The notes under the pieces are model-generated. The model saw nothing but the letters and a program-made list of their open reading frames with translations, was not told the origin of the DNA and searched no databases. From sequence record MN850576.1: a stretch of DNA of 64,000 nt; one strand, written 5' to 3'. A program made the position numbers and the translations under genes. How positions within the stretch are numbered: position 1 is the stretch's first letter; every line of letters starts with the position of its first letter. The stretch comes from Escherichia phage ime. Of the stretch, positions 2,061 through 42,502 are shown in pieces.

Positions 2061-3110
2061 ATGAATTTAACACCTCGCAGCACCATGGTACACGGCATGA
2101 AAGAAAAACAGAACGGTTTCGAACCTATGAGTAATAAAATGTTTGGTATGCCGGGCGGTATCATGGAAACATACAGCTACCCAACACCTGTTGTTGACCA
2201 CGTTCTTTATATCGACGATTTGGAGGACCTGCAGGATCATATGTCTCGTCTGCAGACGATCCGTATGGCTCAGCCGGAAGAAAGCATTCGTGTGATCATC
2301 AATAGCCCTGGTGGTTGCGTGCACATTGCAATGGCCTATCTGCAGGCATTCCGCGAGTCTCAGGCAAGCGTTGTTGCACATGCTGAAGGGATGTGCTGCT
2401 CTGCTGGAACAATCTTATGGCTTGGTTGCAAAGAACGTACTGTGGCTCCGGACACAGAATTTATGTTCCACTACTATCAAGGTGGCACTTATGGTAACGG
2501 TGTTAACATGAATACTCAGGTCAGCTACTGGAAAAAACGTTTTGAACACCTGATCGAAAAATACTACGGTGGGGTGCTGACAGAAGATGAGATAGCATCC
2601 ATCACAGCTGGTGGCGAAGTGTGGTTGGACGGAGAAGAGTTGGCAGCACGCACTGGAGCTATTATTCTGGATGAAGGCAACATACAACGCATCCAGAACG
2701 GACAAAAACCGAAAAAGCTTCTGGCAAAAGGTGATGAAGAAGGCGTGTTAGGTGAAGCAGGTCTTCCGGAGATTCATCAGTGCACATCTTTAGATGAGTT
2801 AGTTCATGCTGTTGAATCTGCAAAAGCGGGTGGTTCGAAAGGTGATGTTCACACTGTGTTCCTGAATCTGCAGATGGAAAGTGGCGAGACCGTCCGAATT
2901 GCCCTGGGTGAGATTACTTCAGAAGATCTGCAGAGATTCTCTGTCGTTGAACTTCAGGATATTCTGTCTCAATTGAAGACTACTCTGAACGGCGGTGAAG
3001 AGGTTAAGGTGAAAGATAAGACTCGCAAGCGTCTTGTGGACAATATTATTAAAACAGCAAAAGAGCTCAATGAAAAAATCCTGGGTGCAGGAATTGTCGA
3101 AGAAGCTTAA
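2061..3110 (+). CDS. ClpP-family (S14) serine peptidase with C-terminal extension
   Basis: ClpP-like core INSPGG...AEGMCCSAG...FMFHY. Confidence 0.65.
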   Translation: MNLTPRSTMVHGMKEKQNGFEPMSNKMFGMPGGIMETYSYPTPVVDHVLYIDDLEDLQDHMSRLQTIRMAQPEESIRVIINSPGGCVHIAMAYLQAFRESQASVVAHAEGMCCSAGTILWLGCKERTVAPDTEFMFHYYQGGTYGNGVNMNTQVSYWKKRFEHLIEKYYGGVLTEDEIASITAGGEVWLDGEELAARTGAIILDEGNIQRIQNGQKPKKLLAKGDEEGVLGEAGLPEIHQCTSLDELVHAVESAKAGGSKGDVHTVFLNLQMESGETVRIALGEITSEDLQRFSVVELQDILSQLKTTLNGGEEVKVKDKTRKRLVDNIIKTAKELNEKILGAGIVEEA

Positions 3111-3123
3111 ACATTAATTCTAA

Positions 3124-3146
3124 AGCCCTCTTCGGAGGGCTTTTAT
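3124..3146 (+). terminator. rho-independent terminator
   Basis: AGCCCTC-TTCG-GAGGGCT stem-loop followed by TTTTAT. Confidence 0.6.
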
Positions 3147-3161
3147 GATCTGGAGATTTGC

Positions 3162-3695
3162 ATGACTTGTGCTAGAAAACCTGATGAACAACGTAACGCC
3201 TACGATGAGTATGTGACACCGGAGTGGTGTGCAGAAGGGCTGTATGACCTTATTCCGTTCCCAGAAGACTGGACCTACTTAGAGCCTTGCAGGAATAGTG
3301 CCTCAGGTGTGTTCTACTCCCGTATGCCGTTAGGATCTGCATGGGGAGAAATCCAAGAAGGTGTTGACTATCTGAATACAGAATACAACCATGTTGACTG
3401 TATTATCACCAACCCGCCGTACAGCCTGGCTCGTGAGTTTGTGGACAAGGCGTTGAAAGATGCCGACGTAGTTATTATGCTTTTGCGTCTTAATTTTCTG
3501 GAAAGCAAGGCCAGATTTGAATGGTGGCTTGATAATGCACCTACCACTGTGATCACAATATCTAAGCGTCCGTCATTCCAATCTAATGGTAGAACGGATG
3601 GGCAGGCATATGCATATTTTGTATGGGACAAGAAAAACCGTCTAGACTTGCCGCCATTTATGTGGTTGGCACCACCAGAGGCAGACTTGAAATGA
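3162..3695 (+). CDS. small DNA N6-adenine methyltransferase (phage Dam-like)
   Basis: NPPY catalytic motif (DCIITNPPYS); 177 aa; GGAG RBS. Confidence 0.6.
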   Translation: MTCARKPDEQRNAYDEYVTPEWCAEGLYDLIPFPEDWTYLEPCRNSASGVFYSRMPLGSAWGEIQEGVDYLNTEYNHVDCIITNPPYSLAREFVDKALKDADVVIMLLRLNFLESKARFEWWLDNAPTTVITISKRPSFQSNGRTDGQAYAYFVWDKKNRLDLPPFMWLAPPEADLK

Positions 3696-36191: not shown

Positions 36192-36415
36192 AGGTCCTCT
36201 TCAACAGCTACAAACTTGGCAAGCAGGGTGGTTCCGTAGATATGATACTCACCGTTTGCCAGATGGGAGATAAACCAGGCAACCCCTTCCTCGTCTTTAA
36301 TCATTTTATTTGCACGAGCTTTATCGTAATAAACCTCGTAGGTCTTTCCTTCTTTAAAGAATGACAGGTCTGTCATCTTTTCTTCTACAAAGGTAGCTTT
36401 AACCAAAGTCGTCAT
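36188..36415 (-). CDS. hypothetical protein
   Basis: ORF track; ATGA overlap. Confidence 0.45.
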   Translation of the reverse strand: MTTLVKATFVEEKMTDLSFFKEGKTYEVYYDKARANKMIKDEEGVAWFISHLANGEYHIYGTTLLAKFVAVEEDL

Positions 36416-36696
36416 TGATCAGTCTCCTTCTTGTTAAGTCTGAATACTGCAATAATAGCATTCCCAAGGTGCAGTGTCAAATCATTTCCAAGATACCACA
36501 GCATCCCACGGTCATCTTTAATGAAAGGGTAACAATCTGGTGCCTTCCAGACATTGTACACTTTGCCAACCTGAAAGAAATCAGGCCCTGTCGGGATTTT
36601 GGTGCCAGGCCACACTTGAGATACCTGAACACACTCCACCTGCATAATAACAGGAATAGTCATGGATGTAAATGTTTTTGTTGGTTCTACTACCAT
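36412..36696 (-). CDS. hypothetical protein
   Basis: ATG 36696 with AAAGAGGAGA RBS (track ORF extends to 36786). Confidence 0.45.
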   Translation of the reverse strand: MVVEPTKTFTSMTIPVIMQVECVQVSQVWPGTKIPTGPDFFQVGKVYNVWKAPDCYPFIKDDRGMLWYLGNDLTLHLGNAIIAVFRLNKKETDQ

Positions 36697-36745
36697 AAAA
36701 GTCTCCTCTTTGCTCAACAACACTTCCATGTGTTGATAGTTTACA

Positions 36746-37099
36746 TTAGTGACAATCACCCCAATTACGACCACACAAGTATTCACCTGTGATCTGGAAC
36801 GGGACTCCCATCATTTTAGAAGCTTGCCAGAAGCAATGCACCACCATTTCACCCACAGGGCTCCAGATAAGTTCAAGCTTTCCGTCATCGTTCAGGATAG
36901 GATCGTACACCGTGTTTCCGTCTCTGTCAACCACTTCGTTTCCGTTTTCATCCTTGCGTGCCTTTTTGTACTTATGACCGTCAAACACATGAAGTTTGGC
37001 CTCCTGCTCTGCCTTAAATGCTTCCAATTCTTCAATTGTGTCGAAGGTGTACACAGTCTTATACTTAGGCGTGTCAGGGACCTGAAGTTGGTACTCATC
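36746..37099 (-). CDS. DNA polymerase (family A) C-terminal segment: putative exon 2 or C-terminal fragment
   Basis: Begins DEYQLQV directly after a TTG pseudo-start and ends ...NWGDCH like the conserved Pol A C-terminal His; no independent RBS. Confidence 0.55.
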   Translation of the reverse strand, partial: DEYQLQVPDTPKYKTVYTFDTIEELEAFKAEQEAKLHVFDGHKYKKARKDENGNEVVDRDGNTVYDPILNDDGKLELIWSPVGEMVVHCFWQASKMMGVPFQITGEYLCGRNWGDCH

Positions 37100-38001
37100 C
37101 AATAGTTCAGGTAGGTCGTTAAGCTACCCCGCACCATTACGTGCACAGCCATACGGTTTCCTGTATGGATCGGACTATCTCACTACCTTGTTACCAAGGC
37201 ACCTCTCATTTCGACCGCACTTGCTGGCCTACTCTACTCGCTTCTTCACACCAAACTATGTTGGAGCTATGCTTTCGATAGTCTCTGAACGTTACTACCA
37301 GGTGTAGTTTTTAGAGATATGTTTCCACTGTCTTCTTTGCTTTATGGCTCTGACCGTCTCATAAGGATACCCAAGATCCCTAATCTCACATTGTCGTAGA
37401 CCACTCTGCAACAGTTCACAAATCTCCATTACCTCATCCTCGGTCAGCACAGCGTTGGCATTATACTCACCGACTGGCCTTACTCTGAGCTCATTATCGT
37501 AGGCGTGTTTGATATTTTCACCGGGGGTAGTCCATTCCAGGTTCCAGTATGCATTGTTGTACTTATTTCCATCCTTATGGTTCACCCATGTGAGCTTTTC
37601 AGGATCAGGGTTCGGTACAAAGCATTCAGCAACCAAGTGGTGGACACCTTTTGTGCACTGCCTTCCATCGATGAGCATGGTTACGCAAAGGTAACCTCTA
37701 CCATTATCAAAACAAAACATTGTTGTATGATCACGTTTCGATAAAGGTATTGTTCCATCATCAAACACGATATACCCGTGATAATCAGCTGATCTAGCCA
37801 TTTTAACTACACCCCTTTAGTCTTCGCTGCGGATTAGCATATTGAGTTTTTACCATGTTTAGGTGTAAAAGTCAACTTAGCCTTCCCGTCAATTAAAGAG
37901 GTTTTCGACGTGCATCACTGCACGAAGCCACAATGTTATTTATGGTAATAAATAATACGACGAACACCTTCATCGTACCACCCACGCTTCACCATTTGGT
38001 G
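37100..38001 (-). mobile_element. ~900-bp insertion in DNA polymerase gene (putative group I intron carrying an HNH homing endonuclease gene)
   Basis: Interrupts Pol A at motif C (H|DE); stop-rich flanks of 134 and 193 nt around the HNH ORF; last nucleotide G before exon 2. Confidence 0.45.
37295..37801 (-). CDS. HNH homing endonuclease
   Basis: HHLVAECFVPNP...VNHKDGNKYNNAYWNLEWTTPGEN HNH signature. Confidence 0.75.
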   Translation of the reverse strand: MARSADYHGYIVFDDGTIPLSKRDHTTMFCFDNGRGYLCVTMLIDGRQCTKGVHHLVAECFVPNPDPEKLTWVNHKDGNKYNNAYWNLEWTTPGENIKHAYDNELRVRPVGEYNANAVLTEDEVMEICELLQSGLRQCEIRDLGYPYETVRAIKQRRQWKHISKNYTW

Positions 38002-40365
38002 GTGCATGAGTATCCCAACTAAGTCACACAACGATGCACCACCATTTTGTTGGTATGCATTAAGTAAAGAGTGTTTAGATCGGGTCCAGATAGCATGACC
38101 ATCAAAAGAGTAGATAAACTTCTTACCCGTTGCTTCCCAGAATTTCTCCAGATCCTCTTTACGCCCTTTAAGACCAGGGTTGGCATCCCAAAGCGCATCG
38201 ATTACCCTTTGCCCCAACTCTGGGGAGATATCCAGCATGTCTGCAACTTTATCTTTTTGTGCCCCATACATAACCCCGTACGTGATAGGTTTACCGTCGT
38301 TACGAGACACCTCTCTACCTGCTACTTTCGTATATGCCTCAGCATTGTTTTGGTGGGCATCCCCGTTACTTACAACATCGTAATACAGGCCGTTGTCGAA
38401 CTCAAAGGCACCCCAAGCCCCGATAAGCTGCTCTAAGTTGGACCCGTCAATACCGATCTCAAAGTATCCTGGAGGAACACCCCACAGACTGCGCATCTCT
38501 TTACCCATAACCACTTTAGGAGATGGTTTAGGCATGTTTGCACAAATACTGTGTTTCTGTCGGGAAGTGTTTGTTAATCCAGAGCTTTTAGCAGGAAGCT
38601 TATGGTCAATCTTCAAACGTGGGTGATTAAGAAGACCAGTATCAACCTTATCCTCCTTGATTGGATCAAGGACCGATCTGCGGTTTCGCAATGATAACCA
38701 CAAGACGATATCTTTAGCCATCTCTCCGTTCAATTTTTCAAGATTCGGACATAGGTGTCCAAACGTATCTTTCAGTTGCGGAGAAGTAATAAGTGCCCTG
38801 GCTTTTCTGCGTATTTTCCCGAACACTTCCTTTTTAATCCTTTCGGAGTTAGGAAAGCTTCGGAACTTGTGCACTGTTGTCTGAAACTTAGCATCAGTTT
38901 TGTTCCAGAAGTTGATAATTAGGTCACAATACTCTGACTCTAAAAGCTCGTCCATGTATGCATATACTCGTGCATCAACATCTGCATCAGGTAGAGCTTT
39001 CTTCTTGCTGTCCTTAGTTACATCCTTAGTTCTCCACATTGTCGGAAGCCAACCAGCACTGATCAGGTATCGCTTAATGTCGTCCTGGTTGCTGATTTTC
39101 ATAGGTATCTTGCAGTCAGGCATTCGCTTCTGCTGCAGATCACTTATTGCCTGATCCATCAGCTCTTTAGGTAAAGGTTGTGGTGTGGAGGTGCCCTTAA
39201 TATAACCTCTCAAGAAATCAGCCATCTTGTCGGGGTCTTTGCAGCCCATCTCTTCGCACCATTTTATCCCCATCTTGCTGACATCTCCTGTGGAGGTAAA
39301 TGCTCGCTTAGGCGGGGCTTTGAATTCTAAAGCGCTCATGTCTACAGGATAGCCAAGCTTATCTTTTAACCATTTCCAACCATTATTGGAGATTGTCCCA
39401 TCTTGGTTAAACGGCTTTTCAGGGAACTTGGGCCGCTGAGACATTGACAACTCTTTTAAAGGAAGTTGAGGTTCAACACGATCAGCGATCTCTTTCATCC
39501 ACGCATCGCAACGGTCACGTAAAGCAATAGCTCCATCTATGTCGAAGTATACACCCTGACGGGCCTGCAGCTCCATCAGGAAGTGCTGCAGCATGCCTCG
39601 ACGTAATGCGTTCTTCCAGGTGATCTTCTTGAACCCTTTCGGCTTCTCTTTGGCTGGATCGTACATAAAGTTCTGCATGTCAGATTTGCCGTAGAATACA
39701 CCTTTTGATTCCGCTACCAGCTCTTTCCAGAGCAGCTCCTGGATGATAACGTCCTCGAATACACGATCCACATACTTCCACAACGGAAGATCGCGCCAGT
39801 CATCAATTTGAACTTTCTGGTTACCAAGGGCGTAGCCCCATGCCATAAGGCCGTGAGGACCAACAGGCTGCATTTTCTTAGTAACCGGGTTGAATACAGA
39901 GTCCGGACAACCTTTTGGTAAAGGGCGATCAGGCCACAAGATTCTGCTCATCGCCAACGTATCAAACAGGTTAACCTGGTGGTCGTTGATAGTCCCCATG
40001 CATTTAGGATCACGGAACATATCAAAATGAATACCGGATAATCTTTCCATCAGCATAAAGTCATAACTGTAGCAGTTATGGCAGTTCAAAGCTGTTGGTG
40101 ACCAGTCGGAATTGCCTGTAAGCCAACCTTCCAACTCCGAAAAATCTGCTATGCGAACTTCAAAATCTTTATGAAGAGTTTTCTTTGCCAGAATAAAGTT
40201 CTTAGCCTTCTCTATATCCTCTTCGGAGTAGTGTGTGCGGTCATTTAGAGGAAGGAACAGCATAAAACGGTTCTTATTCAGCTCTTTAAACAGGCCGCAG
40301 TGATAATAAAGATCTGGATCTTCCAGCAAACCGGATGACTCAAAGTCGAACGACCACATGCTCAT
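38002..40365 (-). CDS. DNA polymerase, family A (exon 1: 3'-5' exonuclease domain and polymerase motifs A and B)
   Basis: Exo I FDFES; motif A IDGSNLEQL; motif B KPITYGVMYG; frame reads ...GILMH then runs on 21 codons into the insertion to stop at 37936; TAAGGAGA RBS. Confidence 0.8.
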
Positions 40366-40423
40366 ATACAGTTCTCCTTAAAGGGGAGGCGGTTGTACTA
40401 CCCCTCCCACTCTTTGTTAAACA

Positions 40424-42502
40424 TTAAAAAGGTGTTTCATCATCCTCAAAACCAGGGACCGGATCAGAGGATGGATCATCGTATTGGAGGTCTTCCTGCG
40501 TGTCAATAGGCTTGACAGTGGGTGTTACAACCTTATCAGCCACAACCTTGCCCATAGGTGTTTCTACAACTGCATGCTCCTGATCCTCAAACATAGCCTG
40601 AGGTCTCCAAACAACCTCCCCACCTTCTCCGTCTGTAAACATCTGCATTTCTTTGTCCCAGTACCAATTACTGGCATCATGGAACTTACCTGTATGCGGA
40701 TCCATAACTAAAGTGTCAGCAATACCTAAAGTTTTTGCTGGACGGTTTTTAAGACCTACCAGACGGACACGTCCACGAGAACGATCCACCATTTCTTCGG
40801 CCTCGACACCTATGACTACCCAACTCAACTGTTCAAGCCCAGCCGATCCTCGCAAATTCTCTTTTCGCACAGGATACCAGAAAGGTAATGGGTTACCATC
40901 CTTGTCCTTAGGGGGCACAATCTCTGTACGTTTGAGGTGAGCGATCACCAAGATAAACACGTTAAACTGCTTACAAAACGCAGCCAGTTGGGTCATAGCC
41001 ATGTCCAGTTCTTTTCGCTCATCCTTAACATTAAGCCCTGAAATTACCATGGACAGGTGATCCAGCACAATATAACGACAATGGTACAGGCAAACCATTT
41101 GCTTAAGCTTGGTAATCAACTCGTCCACTGGAATAGACCCGAAATGTTTGAACACTTTGATTTTTCCAGCTTTTGCCCATGATTGGTGAATCTCTGCGTG
41201 TTCTTGATCAGTTAAAAACTGGCTAGGATCTTCAACAAACTCTTTAACATCAAACCCTAACTGGTTTGCATACAAGGAGTTAATTGCTTCCTCTGGGTCC
41301 TCCTCAAGATGGATCATACATAGACGATCATCCTCTTCATAGTCATCAGCCTTCGGGCATGTTGGGTCCATTAGGTATCTTGCAATACAATGTTCCAGTT
41401 TTTTAGCTACGGTTGTTTTACCGCCACCTGATGGGCCTGTAAGCATTACAAGTGTCCCCTTGTGCAAGCCTTTTAACATTTTTTGCAGTTTTGGGAACTC
41501 TGCACTGATATCTACCCCGTTGGAAGTCTTTTTCCGCAAAGACTCGATAGAGAAGTCTTCTAAGTCCGACACAGCATCAGGCACGTATTTAACAGGATGC
41601 CGGAACATGTTGACAATATCTTCCAGCTTTTTAGCCTTCAGCATGTCACGGATATCTTTTACCCCGTCAGGGTCATTTACTTCACCAGGGTATTCTACGT
41701 GGTAAACGTTATCAGCCATCAAAAATGCTGCGATATTGTGCGTGGCCTCAACACCTTTAATGACGTGTTTTTGCTTCTCTACCTCGTTGGCTGCATCGTT
41801 ATCCATTGCCAGCACAACTGTTCCATAGCTACGGATAAACTTCTCATTGTTTGCAAAAGTATCTACTGCGTTTGCACATCCACAGTTAATTCCAACAAAA
41901 GGTAGGCAGGGTTTTCCTGCCAGATCACCACCGTTGATAACTGCATCGATCCCGTCCTGGACCTCTTTAGCCCACTGTTTCACCTTTGCCGGGGCTTTAG
42001 CATTGGTGAGAATCCCTTTTACTTGTATCTGATATGCAGCCTGCCATGCTGCAATAACATCGCCTTCCCCCTCACAAACGTTAATCTGCTTACGGTTGTT
42101 AGAAGATGCACACAGCTTTTGCCCAAACATTTGGGAGTTAGCCTTTACGATCCCAACCGTCGTAAAGTGCCCACGTTGCTCTTTGGGGATCGTCCAGTCA
42201 CGCTTTTTGAAACCGGACAGATTCCCGTAGCGGTCGTAATATGGGAAATATGTTGCAGTAACTGTCACACCGTCTTCTTGGGACAATGCTGATCGCACAC
42301 CAAAATATTGTGCAGCCATCAGACCGATATTTTGTTGTGGGACAGGGACAATTTTAGTATTTTCTAAAACAGTCTCTACAGTTTCAACTTCTTTTTCATC
42401 ACGATAGTCTCGTTTCACACTTCCCCCACTTTTATACTTAGTTGCTTTCGGGTTTGGCTCACCGAAACGGTTGTATGCAGATGCCATAAATTTACTTCCC
42501 AT
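40424..42502 (-). CDS. bifunctional primase-helicase (T7 gp4-like: TOPRIM primase plus DnaB-family helicase)
   Basis: TOPRIM-like CEGEGD/AMDNDAANE; Walker A GPSGGGKT; acidic C-terminus ...FEDDETPF. Confidence 0.85.
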   Translation of the reverse strand: MGSKFMASAYNRFGEPNPKATKYKSGGSVKRDYRDEKEVETVETVLENTKIVPVPQQNIGLMAAQYFGVRSALSQEDGVTVTATYFPYYDRYGNLSGFKKRDWTIPKEQRGHFTTVGIVKANSQMFGQKLCASSNNRKQINVCEGEGDVIAAWQAAYQIQVKGILTNAKAPAKVKQWAKEVQDGIDAVINGGDLAGKPCLPFVGINCGCANAVDTFANNEKFIRSYGTVVLAMDNDAANEVEKQKHVIKGVEATHNIAAFLMADNVYHVEYPGEVNDPDGVKDIRDMLKAKKLEDIVNMFRHPVKYVPDAVSDLEDFSIESLRKKTSNGVDISAEFPKLQKMLKGLHKGTLVMLTGPSGGGKTTVAKKLEHCIARYLMDPTCPKADDYEEDDRLCMIHLEEDPEEAINSLYANQLGFDVKEFVEDPSQFLTDQEHAEIHQSWAKAGKIKVFKHFGSIPVDELITKLKQMVCLYHCRYIVLDHLSMVISGLNVKDERKELDMAMTQLAAFCKQFNVFILVIAHLKRTEIVPPKDKDGNPLPFWYPVRKENLRGSAGLEQLSWVVIGVEAEEMVDRSRGRVRLVGLKNRPAKTLGIADTLVMDPHTGKFHDASNWYWDKEMQMFTDGEGGEVVWRPQAMFEDQEHAVVETPMGKVVADKVVTPTVKPIDTQEDLQYDDPSSDPVPGFEDDETPF

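Follow-up and report, generated by a model that had tools for sequence, protein, structure and literature searches.

How does Escherichia phage ime (sequence record MN850576.1) make a complete family A DNA polymerase from a reading frame that ends before the catalytic motif C? The window analyzed here is a stretch of 64,000 nucleotides from the genome of this phage, a Vequintavirus (an rV5-like coliphage) with 98% identity to published genomes. Its minus strand carries three ORFs exactly where the initial annotation had placed them: an 809-aa Pol A ORF (40365..37936), a 168-aa HNH ORF (37801..37295) and a 118-codon ORF (37102..36746) that reads (L)DEYQLQV...NWGDCH. The 809-aa ORF taken alone has no HDE motif C, and joining a His to DEY restores it, as had been observed from the outset. 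From the evidence set out below we conclude that the polymerase is, with little room for doubt, one gene broken by a mobile and presumably self-splicing group I intron, of subgroup IA2, that lies within HDE, after the His codon and before that of Asp.

The exact limits of the interruption were given by relatives in which the gene is continuous. In the intron-less phage PMBT16 the DNA at the site is TACCAT|GATGAG and the protein is TATTACCAT|GATGAGTAC, i.e., ...RRIIYYH|DEY. Based on this alignment, exon 1 (minus strand, 37942..40365) has 808 codons, from the ATG at 40365 to the CAU of H808 (37944..37942), which is the penultimate codon of the 809-aa ORF; only the last codon of that ORF (AAA) and its stop (UAA) are intron. 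Exon 2 (minus strand, 36746..37099), 117 codons plus a stop and contiguous with exon 1 in the intron-less alleles, opens with GAU GAG, which supplies the D and E of motif C, and finishes ...NWGDCH. Exon 1 to H808 followed by exon 2 from its D gives a single-piece match to intron-less phages including PMBT16 (100% over 235 aa), and the spliced product of 925 aa has the length of the PMBT16 polymerase CDS. The predicted ligated junction is ...UAUUACCAU|GAUGAGUAC, with the junction-spanning peptide IIYYHDEYQLQVPDTPK, and the uninterrupted site of the PMBT16 type is TATTTATTACCATGATGAGTACCAAC. The initial annotation had set the junction at H788 (GILMH|DEY) and taken the 21 codons beyond it for read-through, but the intron-less alleles, and likewise the alignment with T7, move it 21 codons downstream to H808; those codons (HQMVKRGWYDEGVRRIIYYH) are true exon, aligned with ...EKGLKHGWDGDFAYMAWVH of T7 gp5.

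So joined, the predicted product is a T7-like family A polymerase with motifs A, B and C, including the catalytic Asp of HDE. The 925-aa product matched T7 polymerase with E=7e-16 (residues 633-813), its HDE falling on T7 H653-D654-E655 (joined ...RRIIYYH|DEYQLQV vs. T7 ...AWVHDEIQV). Against an approximate T7 sequence, the motif C segment across the junction gave a BLASTP E=2e-6 and the C-terminal NW..CH region a weak alignment (E=0.057). In the alignment to Pol A HMMs, which had been suggested as a check, the Pfam DNA_pol_A match extends past the junction and reaches position 349 in a profile of 381, but with scores of 27.9 and 20.7 bits it stays under the cutoff of 34.3 bits, and exon 2 alone had no significant match among solved Pol A structures. 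The long tail after HDE, which had been noted as a caveat, is real, and since the intron-less relatives share it, it is a feature of the lineage that stands apart from the split.

The intervening 842 nt (minus strand, 37100..37941), recognized by RF00028 and covariation and delimited by the intron-less alleles, begin with AAAUAA and therefore carry an in-frame stop one codon past the splice site, and they end in ...UAUUG, with the terminal G at 37100. This terminal G is found right before GATGAR in all 12 introns examined. At the other end, exon 1 ends in the canonical U (37942), paired with G in P1, a U.G pair present in 10/10 introns; because the corrected exon ends in U, the earlier objection that the 5' exon ended in C falls away. 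P1 (minus strand, 37928..37945) is formed by exon CCAU (37945..37942) and intron AA with the guide UUGUGG (37933..37928). Its six pairs are all invariant in 10 introns, so that covariation speaks neither for nor against it. As read from the sequence, the GAUG of exon 2 can also pair with intron nt 7-10, CAUU (37935..37932), to give a P10 of 4 bp.

Every Vequintavirus allele seen has a start-type codon immediately ahead of exon 2 (TTG in the window, ATG in JLBYU08 and Mangalyan). This could be taken as a sign that the intron no longer splices and that an N-terminal fragment of 809 aa and a C-terminal one of ~117 aa, begun at the TTG at 37102, associate non-covalently. Such a gene in pieces has a precedent in the NrdA of phage Aeh1, split by the mobE HNH gene and cited in the report on Pectobacterium phage CB7, which itself describes one HNH-associated intervening sequence as unspliced (PMC7344957). 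The conservation of the codon, however, is accounted for because the intron must end in a G and the G of this codon is that last base, and the 25 nt upstream (GCUUAACGACCUACCUGAACUAUUG) hold no Shine-Dalgarno sequence. Two separate chains would also part the catalytic Asp and Glu of motif C from the remaining active site, and the compensatory changes and the covariance-model scores described next count against them too; we regard this arrangement as very improbable.

The group I covariance model Rfam RF00028 (gathering threshold 50 bits), also among the checks first envisaged, gave the window intron 31.9 bits, i.e., under the threshold (E=8e-6 in a 2-kb region and E=2.7e-4 in the whole window), because a 528-nt ORF insert in P6a forces misalignment. 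Alleles at the same site that lack the ORF all exceed the threshold: JLBYU08 scored 72.5, JEP1 73.7, rV5 64.7, 19-1-2 91.2 and Vibrio K412 77.3 bits, with E-values from 1e-14 to 1e-22, and the intron-less PMBT16 locus had no match to RF00028. With E-values of this order, in the window as in the ORF-less alleles, chance is a most unlikely source of the signal. The same alleles rule out Rfam's own alignment of the window, in which the HNH start codon takes the position of the 5' strand of P7 and P3' comes to lie within the ORF; they place the ORF in P6a and the true J6/7-P7 strand, UUCAGAGACUA, downstream of it. No other intron or known RNA was found in the window at the Rfam gathering thresholds or at E<0.1.

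Covariation was assessed for a hand-drawn structure of 70 pairs, from P1 to P9.2, in a neutral alignment of 10 introns made with MAFFT. Across the 10 introns the drawn pairs were 96.7% paired, vs. 34-40% with slid partners, and compensatory double changes occurred in 29 of the 70; none of 500 shuffles reached the observed values. That the ribozyme core has been kept by these changes implies selection on the folding of the RNA, which argues against a gene in pieces. Every helix that varies among the relatives contains covariation (covarying pairs: P3, 2; P4/P5, 2; P7, 2; P8, 4; P9, 4; P9.1, 1; P9.2, 3), and an independent run of RNAalifold recovered P1, P2, P3, P4, P5, P7.2, P8, P9, P9.1 and P9.2. 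As regards the choice originally left between a group I intron with a homing endonuclease gene and two polypeptides from a split gene, the intron is thus strongly favored by RF00028, the U.G pair and terminal G, the covariation and predicted ligated exons that equal the intron-less gene, and the two polypeptides are disfavored.

The helices, all on the minus strand, are as follows. In the P2 hairpin CGUGCA-GUGA-UGCACG (37909..37924) compensatory double changes affect 6/6 pairs and 100% of cells are paired. The 5' half of the core (37825..37902), where P3 and P4/P5 are supported by covariation, holds the 5' strand of P3 (37902..37896; 3' strand 37207..37201), P4 (37891..37885 with 37833..37828), P5 (37882..37880 with 37838..37836) and the 5' strand of P6 (37827..37825; 3' strand 37291..37289), together with a P5a/b arm (37875..37842) that was drawn by eye and stands outside the pair count. 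The 3' half (37172..37291), with compensatory changes in P7, P7.2, P3 and P8, contains P7 (5' strand GAGACUA, 37285..37279; 3' strand UAGUCC, 37177..37172), P7.1 (37278..37238), a GUA linker (37237..37235), P7.2 (37229..37213; 100% paired and covarying) and P8 (37200..37185). P7.1, drawn by eye, is a hairpin in each variant, i.e., UCG...CGA in the window, UUCC-GAAA-GGAA in rV5 and GCC-GAGA-GGC in LTH01. The peripheral 3' helices (37110..37168) are P9 (37168..37149; one A.C mismatch in the window), P9.1 (37145..37130) and P9.2 (37128..37110). The criterion for subgroup IA2 is a pair of additional helices, P7.1 and P7.2, with G-U-A linking them, in the stretch from P7 to P3' (PMC3428280), and with P7.1, the GUA linker and P7.2 in that position the window intron is an IA2 intron.

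The HNH ORF (minus strand, 37295..37801) lies in the P6a loop and encodes a putative I-HmuI-like homing endonuclease of 168 aa, an identification drawn from the ORF list, Pfam and a structure match. Its Pfam HNH_3 score of 22.7 bits (E=7.9e-5) just missed the cutoff of 24.8 bits, and the best solved structure was I-HmuI (1u3e), a match (E=6e-5) in which VNHKDGNKYNNAYWNLEW aligned with VDHKDGNKDNNLSTNLRW; the HNH motif residues are present, with the HKDGNK..NN..NL core conserved vs. I-HmuI, but the Pfam and structure matches both fall short of curated strength. A search of NCBIfam with the protein gave nothing useful. The leader of the ORF (minus strand, 37805..37821) is the 5' strand of P6a, holds the Shine-Dalgarno-like GGGGUG and has its pairing partner at the end of the ORF (37309..37294), and ViennaRNA folded leader and tail into a stem of 4 + 10 bp; Av-05 and LTH01 build equivalent P6a stems from different sequence. 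In JLBYU08 and JEP1, otherwise identical introns have the hairpin CAUCC-GAGA-GGAUG in place of the ORF. A scan within the intron for a promoter of the HNH ORF found nothing over background. An intein was also considered for the window and rejected, as the HNH ORF is in another frame with stops on both sides. JEP1 and Mangalyan do have a true intein-like insert, at another site, which the window is without.

Near-identical phages (92-100%) thus exist in three allele states: intron-less, with the intron but no ORF, and with the intron plus the HNH ORF. This presence/absence polymorphism amends the view that an HNH insertion splits the polymerase: since sister phages carry the ORF-less intron (276-329 nt) at the same site, it is the intron that does so. 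It bears equally on whether the HNH gene might be free-standing, inserted between two pieces of a gene in the absence of a ribozyme and with the flanking non-coding DNA as cargo of the endonuclease, a notion in whose favor Vequintavirinae genomes are rich in such genes (the 21 HNH genes of CB7 are mostly free-standing; PMC7344957). The ORF-less copies, however, of 254-329 nt and at the same site, score 65-91 bits as group I introns, and the flanks of the ORF form P1-P6 and P6-P9.2, so that we give the free-standing gene hardly any credence. The lack of motif C when the 809-aa ORF is read literally might, lastly, point to an assembly error or a decaying pseudogene, with a broken and non-functional polymerase. 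Against this, the identical arrangement recurs, at 92-98% identity, in dozens of plaque-forming phages that were isolated independently, the polymerase is the replicative enzyme of the phage, and the joined exons are intact and in frame; the probability of such an artifact or decay is negligible.

With the locus read as an intron-bearing gene, splicing in the window phage, which we infer from the conserved structure and the homologues, would proceed along familiar lines. In the unspliced transcript P1 would arise where CCAU, the final four bases of exon 1, pairs with the internal guide, and the splice site would be marked by a U.G wobble; an external guanosine, lodged in P7, would attack after the U of exon 1, and the freed 5' exon would then attack after the terminal G (37100), aided by the 4-bp P10 with exon 2. 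The ligated mRNA would encode the 925-aa polymerase reading ...YYHDEYQLQV..., and the UAA one codon into the intron would keep ribosomes off the ribozyme core. The I-HmuI-like HNH enzyme presumably nicks or cuts intron-less polymerase alleles in mixed infections, after which repair would copy the intron into them, and with its ribosome-binding site held in the long P6a stem, translation of the enzyme is probably limited.

Much of this has counterparts in other phages. The td, nrdB and nrdD (sunY) introns of T4 are also IA2 introns, with a homing-endonuclease ORF looped from a peripheral helix (P6a in td) and endonuclease translation limited by RNA structure; they differ in their host genes and in their endonucleases, the GIY-YIG I-TevI and I-TevII, which are of other families. 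As here, HNH-bearing group I introns interrupt the family A polymerases of SPO1, SP82 and Bastille (with the nicking enzymes I-HmuI, I-HmuII and I-BasI) and of the cyanophage Pf-WMP3 (I-PfoP3I). These four introns, however, lie at site 674, in the fingers subdomain, and that of the window at motif C; the Pf-WMP3 intron is likewise IA2, its ORF begins in P6a, and a stop codon stands right at the beginning of the intron (PMC3428280). Closer in position are the introns of the T7-like phages PhiI and W31 (AY769989 and AY769990), compared here through a secondary description: according to PMC3428280, they are IA2 introns with an HNH ORF in P6a, at polymerase site 881 (E. coli Pol I numbering), and they share with the window the interruption of a T7-type family A polymerase, the subgroup and the place of the ORF. 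Based on that literature and on residue numbering, in which site 674 is the Pro|Asn junction, our reading is that site 881 falls directly after the His of HDE and is the site of the window intron. The host phages differ, PhiI and W31 being 40-kb podoviruses and the window's phage a ~137-kb myovirus.

Relatives with a described intron are CB7 and phiTE (Certrevirus, Vequintavirinae), which have the subfamily and the insertion site (...IIYYH|) in common with the window. The CB7 polymerase intron (CB7_51/CB7_50/CB7_49) was reported, from RT-PCR and Sanger sequencing, to be spliced (PMC7344957), and it scored 46.6 bits against RF00028. P1, P2, P3 and P7-P9.2 are homologous between the CB7/phiTE intron and that of the window, whereas the P4'-P6 region is not recognizable by eye and the HNH protein is a different and shorter one (127 aa), preceded by a promoter-like TTGACA-16-TATGAT. 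Further afield, the first ~21 intron nt with their exon context (CCAU|AARYAAHAUUGUGGCUU) recur in IMG/VR contigs, at ...H|D sites of NrdD-like genes and of several Pol A lineages unrelated to one another. Together with the similar introns reported at motif C in PhiI and W31, this raises the tentative and rather unlikely idea that one lineage of introns, or the P1/guide module of that lineage, has repeatedly crossed between essential genes, and between phage families, that are unrelated. It would have done so by recognizing the short CCAU|GAU target, e.g., by reverse splicing, and not through endonuclease-driven homing alone. The shared 5' end may instead reflect convergence or modular exchange.

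An HNH-bearing group I intron at motif C of a phage polymerase is, then, ordinary, and has already been described and annotated. Phage polymerase genes with group I introns that carry HNH endonucleases have been known since SPO1 (1990), and the motif C site since PhiI and W31 (2004); with splicing of the CB7 homologue reported in 2020, the biological significance of the window intron is small. Its practical value lies in the curation of Vequintavirus records: the polymerase is already a joined CDS in at least one GenBank record, from a near-identical phage, but many records, including the RefSeq type genome of rV5, list it as at least two separate proteins, and many have small spurious ORFs annotated inside the intron. 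The exact boundaries (the CAU of H808, the 842-nt intron and the GAU) give the correct joined CDS of 925 aa. In addition, the three allele states among near-identical phages offer a handy natural system in which to measure intron homing in coliphages.

The polymerase region of the window (36700-40400) is 98% identical to published genomes of Vequintavirus, the rV5-like E. coli myophages (such as I29, isim, HeinrichReichert and APECc02), with its genes on the minus strand throughout. Sixteen unannotated "Campylobacter phage" records (MG0656xx, host C. jejuni) share 86-99% identity with E. coli vequintaviruses over the same region, and may reflect a wrong host label or mixed preparations. A T7 gp4-like primase/helicase (42502..40424) is followed by an 809-aa ORF matching the Pfam family DNA_pol_A (40365..37936), a 168-aa HNH homing-endonuclease ORF (37801..37295) and a 118-codon ORF, (L)DEYQLQV...NWGDCH (37102..36746). 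The ORF listing placed all three where the initial annotation had them, and the split that it reported at catalytic motif C is real, HDE being absent from the 809-aa ORF. The second polymerase part, exon 2, shares its last ~40 nt with a 124-aa ORF (36412..36786, minus strand), whose counterpart in sister genomes is annotated as a hypothetical protein.

The exact junction came from relatives in which the gene is whole. Exon 1 to its next-to-last codon (H808), fused to exon 2 from Asp, gave one uninterrupted match to PMBT16 at 100% identity over 235 aa, and aligned without a break to bov11CS3, rV5_ev168, naam and ECP26 (98-99.6% identity). The PMBT16 DNA reads ...TATTTATTACCAT/GATGAGTACCAA... 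at this point, and its 925-aa polymerase CDS is exactly 808 + 117. Because of that junction, that CDS and the uninterrupted sister matches, exon 1 is set to end with the U of CAU at 37942, the intron to occupy 37941..37100 (842 nt) and exon 2 to begin at 37099 with GAU, all on the minus strand. The junction originally proposed, GILMH/DEY, fell 21 codons too early; intron-less sister phages and the T7 alignment place it at H808/D. The 21 codons in question (HQMVKRGWYDEGVRRIIYYH) truly encode polymerase and align with T7 gp5 ...EKGLKHGWDGDFAYMAWVH, the joined HDE aligns on T7 H653-D654-E655, and the Pfam DNA_pol_A match crosses the junction. With them restored to the exon, the worry that the 5' exon ended in C is therefore gone, as exon 1 ends in U (37942).

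The interruption is a group I intron, the first of two possibilities raised in the initial annotation (the other being a gene split into two polypeptides), as borne out by covariance-model matches, covariation, splice-site rules and intron-less alleles. RF00028, the Rfam group I intron model, matched the window at 37951..37150 with 31.9 bits (E = 8e-6), under its 50-bit gathering threshold because the model must thread through the ORF, as is visible in the alignment. JLBYU08 and JEP1 have the same intron with a 14-nt hairpin, CAUCC-GAGA-GGAUG, where the window has 528 nt of ORF plus flanks, and score 72.5 and 73.7 bits; the ORF-less introns of rV5 (276 nt), 19-1-2 (317 nt) and Vibrio phage K412 (254 nt) score 64.7, 91.2 and 77.3 bits, and RF00028 found no match in the intron-less PMBT16 locus.

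Introns at the motif C site were taken from 12 phages, and 10 distinct ones, drawn from four genera of Vequintavirinae plus one Vibrio phage and stripped of any ORF, were aligned by MAFFT, which is structure-blind. Helices P1, P2, P3, P4, P5, P6, P6a, P7, P7.2, P8, P9, P9.1 and P9.2 were drawn by hand. Across the 10 introns, standard pairs filled 96.7% of 665 cells, falling to 34-40% when 3' partners were slid by 1-3 columns, and compensatory two-sided changes occurred in 29 of the 70 drawn pairs, with all six P2 pairs covarying; none of 500 shuffles equalled the observed pairing or covariation. An independent RNAalifold run recovered every hand-drawn helix but P6, P6a and the P7 pseudoknot, the last of which it has no means to represent. 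In P1, UUGUGG pairs with exon CCAU and intron AA, which places the canonical U.G at the 5' splice site; the last intron nucleotide is G, and a P10 is possible between intron nt 7-10 and exon 2 GAUG. Between P7 and P3' lie P7.1, a GUA linker and P7.2, the published IA2 signature (PMC3428280), by which the intron is assigned to subgroup IA2. Judged from these comparisons, the ribozyme is clearly under selection, which counts against an unspliced gene in pieces like Aeh1 NrdA. Such an arrangement, to which a TTG or ATG codon directly 5' of exon 2 lends something, is highly unlikely, since the G of that codon is the one with which the intron must end, and no Shine-Dalgarno sequence was found in the 25 nt upstream of the exon 2 TTG.

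The HNH ORF of this group I intron sits in the P6a loop, where its leader (37821..37805) pairs with its last codons (37309..37294, minus strand) in a 14-bp extension of P6a that, as modelled, closes the ribozyme around the insert. A Shine-Dalgarno-like GGGGUG in the leader lies inside this stem, which would probably restrain endonuclease translation until the structure opens; Av-05 and LTH01 have equivalent stems built from different sequence. The best solved structure for the protein is I-HmuI (E = 6e-5), the endonuclease of the SPO1 polymerase intron; the catalytic His/Asn core is kept, and the Pfam HNH_3 score is slightly below cutoff. Relatives at or below ~55% identity (e.g., Cronobacter phage PBES 02, 54.6%) are found in this intron in further genera of Vequintavirinae, and the intron ORFs of LTH01, SSE121 and CR9 close with the same C-terminal motif.

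Phages whose flanking exons are at least 95% identical show all three allele states: intron-less (a contiguous junction in at least 22 records), intron without ORF, and intron with HNH (~30 records encode an HNH at least 90% identical). This is what a homing intron with gain, ORF loss and precise loss usually looks like. The ORF-less alleles rule out a free-standing HNH gene, an extremely improbable reading, and recurrence in dozens of independent isolates rules out an artefact or pseudogene, for which we see practically no chance. IMG/VR loci L018, L019 and L025 have the same 21-nt exon/intron start, CCAT/AARYAAHATTGTGGCTT, at ...HFH/ sites; their intron bodies differ from that of the window, and their genes, judged by eye, look NrdD-like (anaerobic ribonucleotide reductase) in the N-terminal part. 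This start is also found in family A polymerases of unrelated lineages, at motif C (L027, L028 and L030).

T7-like phages PhiI and W31 are reported to have IA2 introns at polymerase site 881 (E. coli numbering), with an HNH ORF in P6a (PMC3428280). Site 674 in that paper is a Pro/Asn junction, so site 881 follows His881 of HDE and is the site of the window intron, a likeness drawn from published description and residue numbering. The CB7_50 polymerase intron, found here to be the homologue of the window intron, is reported to splice, by RT-PCR and Sanger evidence (PMC7344957). Unlike the window's 168-aa HNH, that of Certrevirus phages CB7 and phiTE is unrelated and shorter (127 aa), and is preceded, inside the intron, by a sigma-70-like TTGACA-16 nt-TATGAT (phiTE, L009 ~700-785; CB7, L014 ~470-557). 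The P4'-P6 region of the Certrevirus intron is unrecognisable by eye, though CB7 is reported to splice.

Exon 1 of JEP1 (L002) and Mangalyan (L003) carries a different insert, 323 aa in frame (~2549-3517 in each locus), which is missing from the window polymerase; the equivalent position there follows H671 (~38353, minus strand). Reading NGDAH/CYSGDTQIL...VAVCGN/CNNAK, with Cys first, Asn last and Cys at +1, and weakly matching Pfam Hint_2 (E = 1e-4), it resembles an intein. A similar intein C-terminus occurs in a different Pol A on IMG/VR contig L027, together with the motif C intron.

In the 2013 rV5 paper, terminase introns are the only ones described and the polymerase has 775 aa. RefSeq rV5 (NC_011041, L006 533-3484) has that 775-aa polymerase and a separate polymerase piece, "ORF 225", with two small hypothetical ORFs, 226 and 227, that fall within or extend across the ORF-less intron of 276 nt, an arrangement that looks like a mis-annotation copied into many records; in MZ501073 (BASEL collection), the polymerase is already a two-part joined CDS with the homing endonuclease inside. 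The window element is an ordinary mobile intron, its kind and site both already described, and the chief value of finding it is correct annotation.
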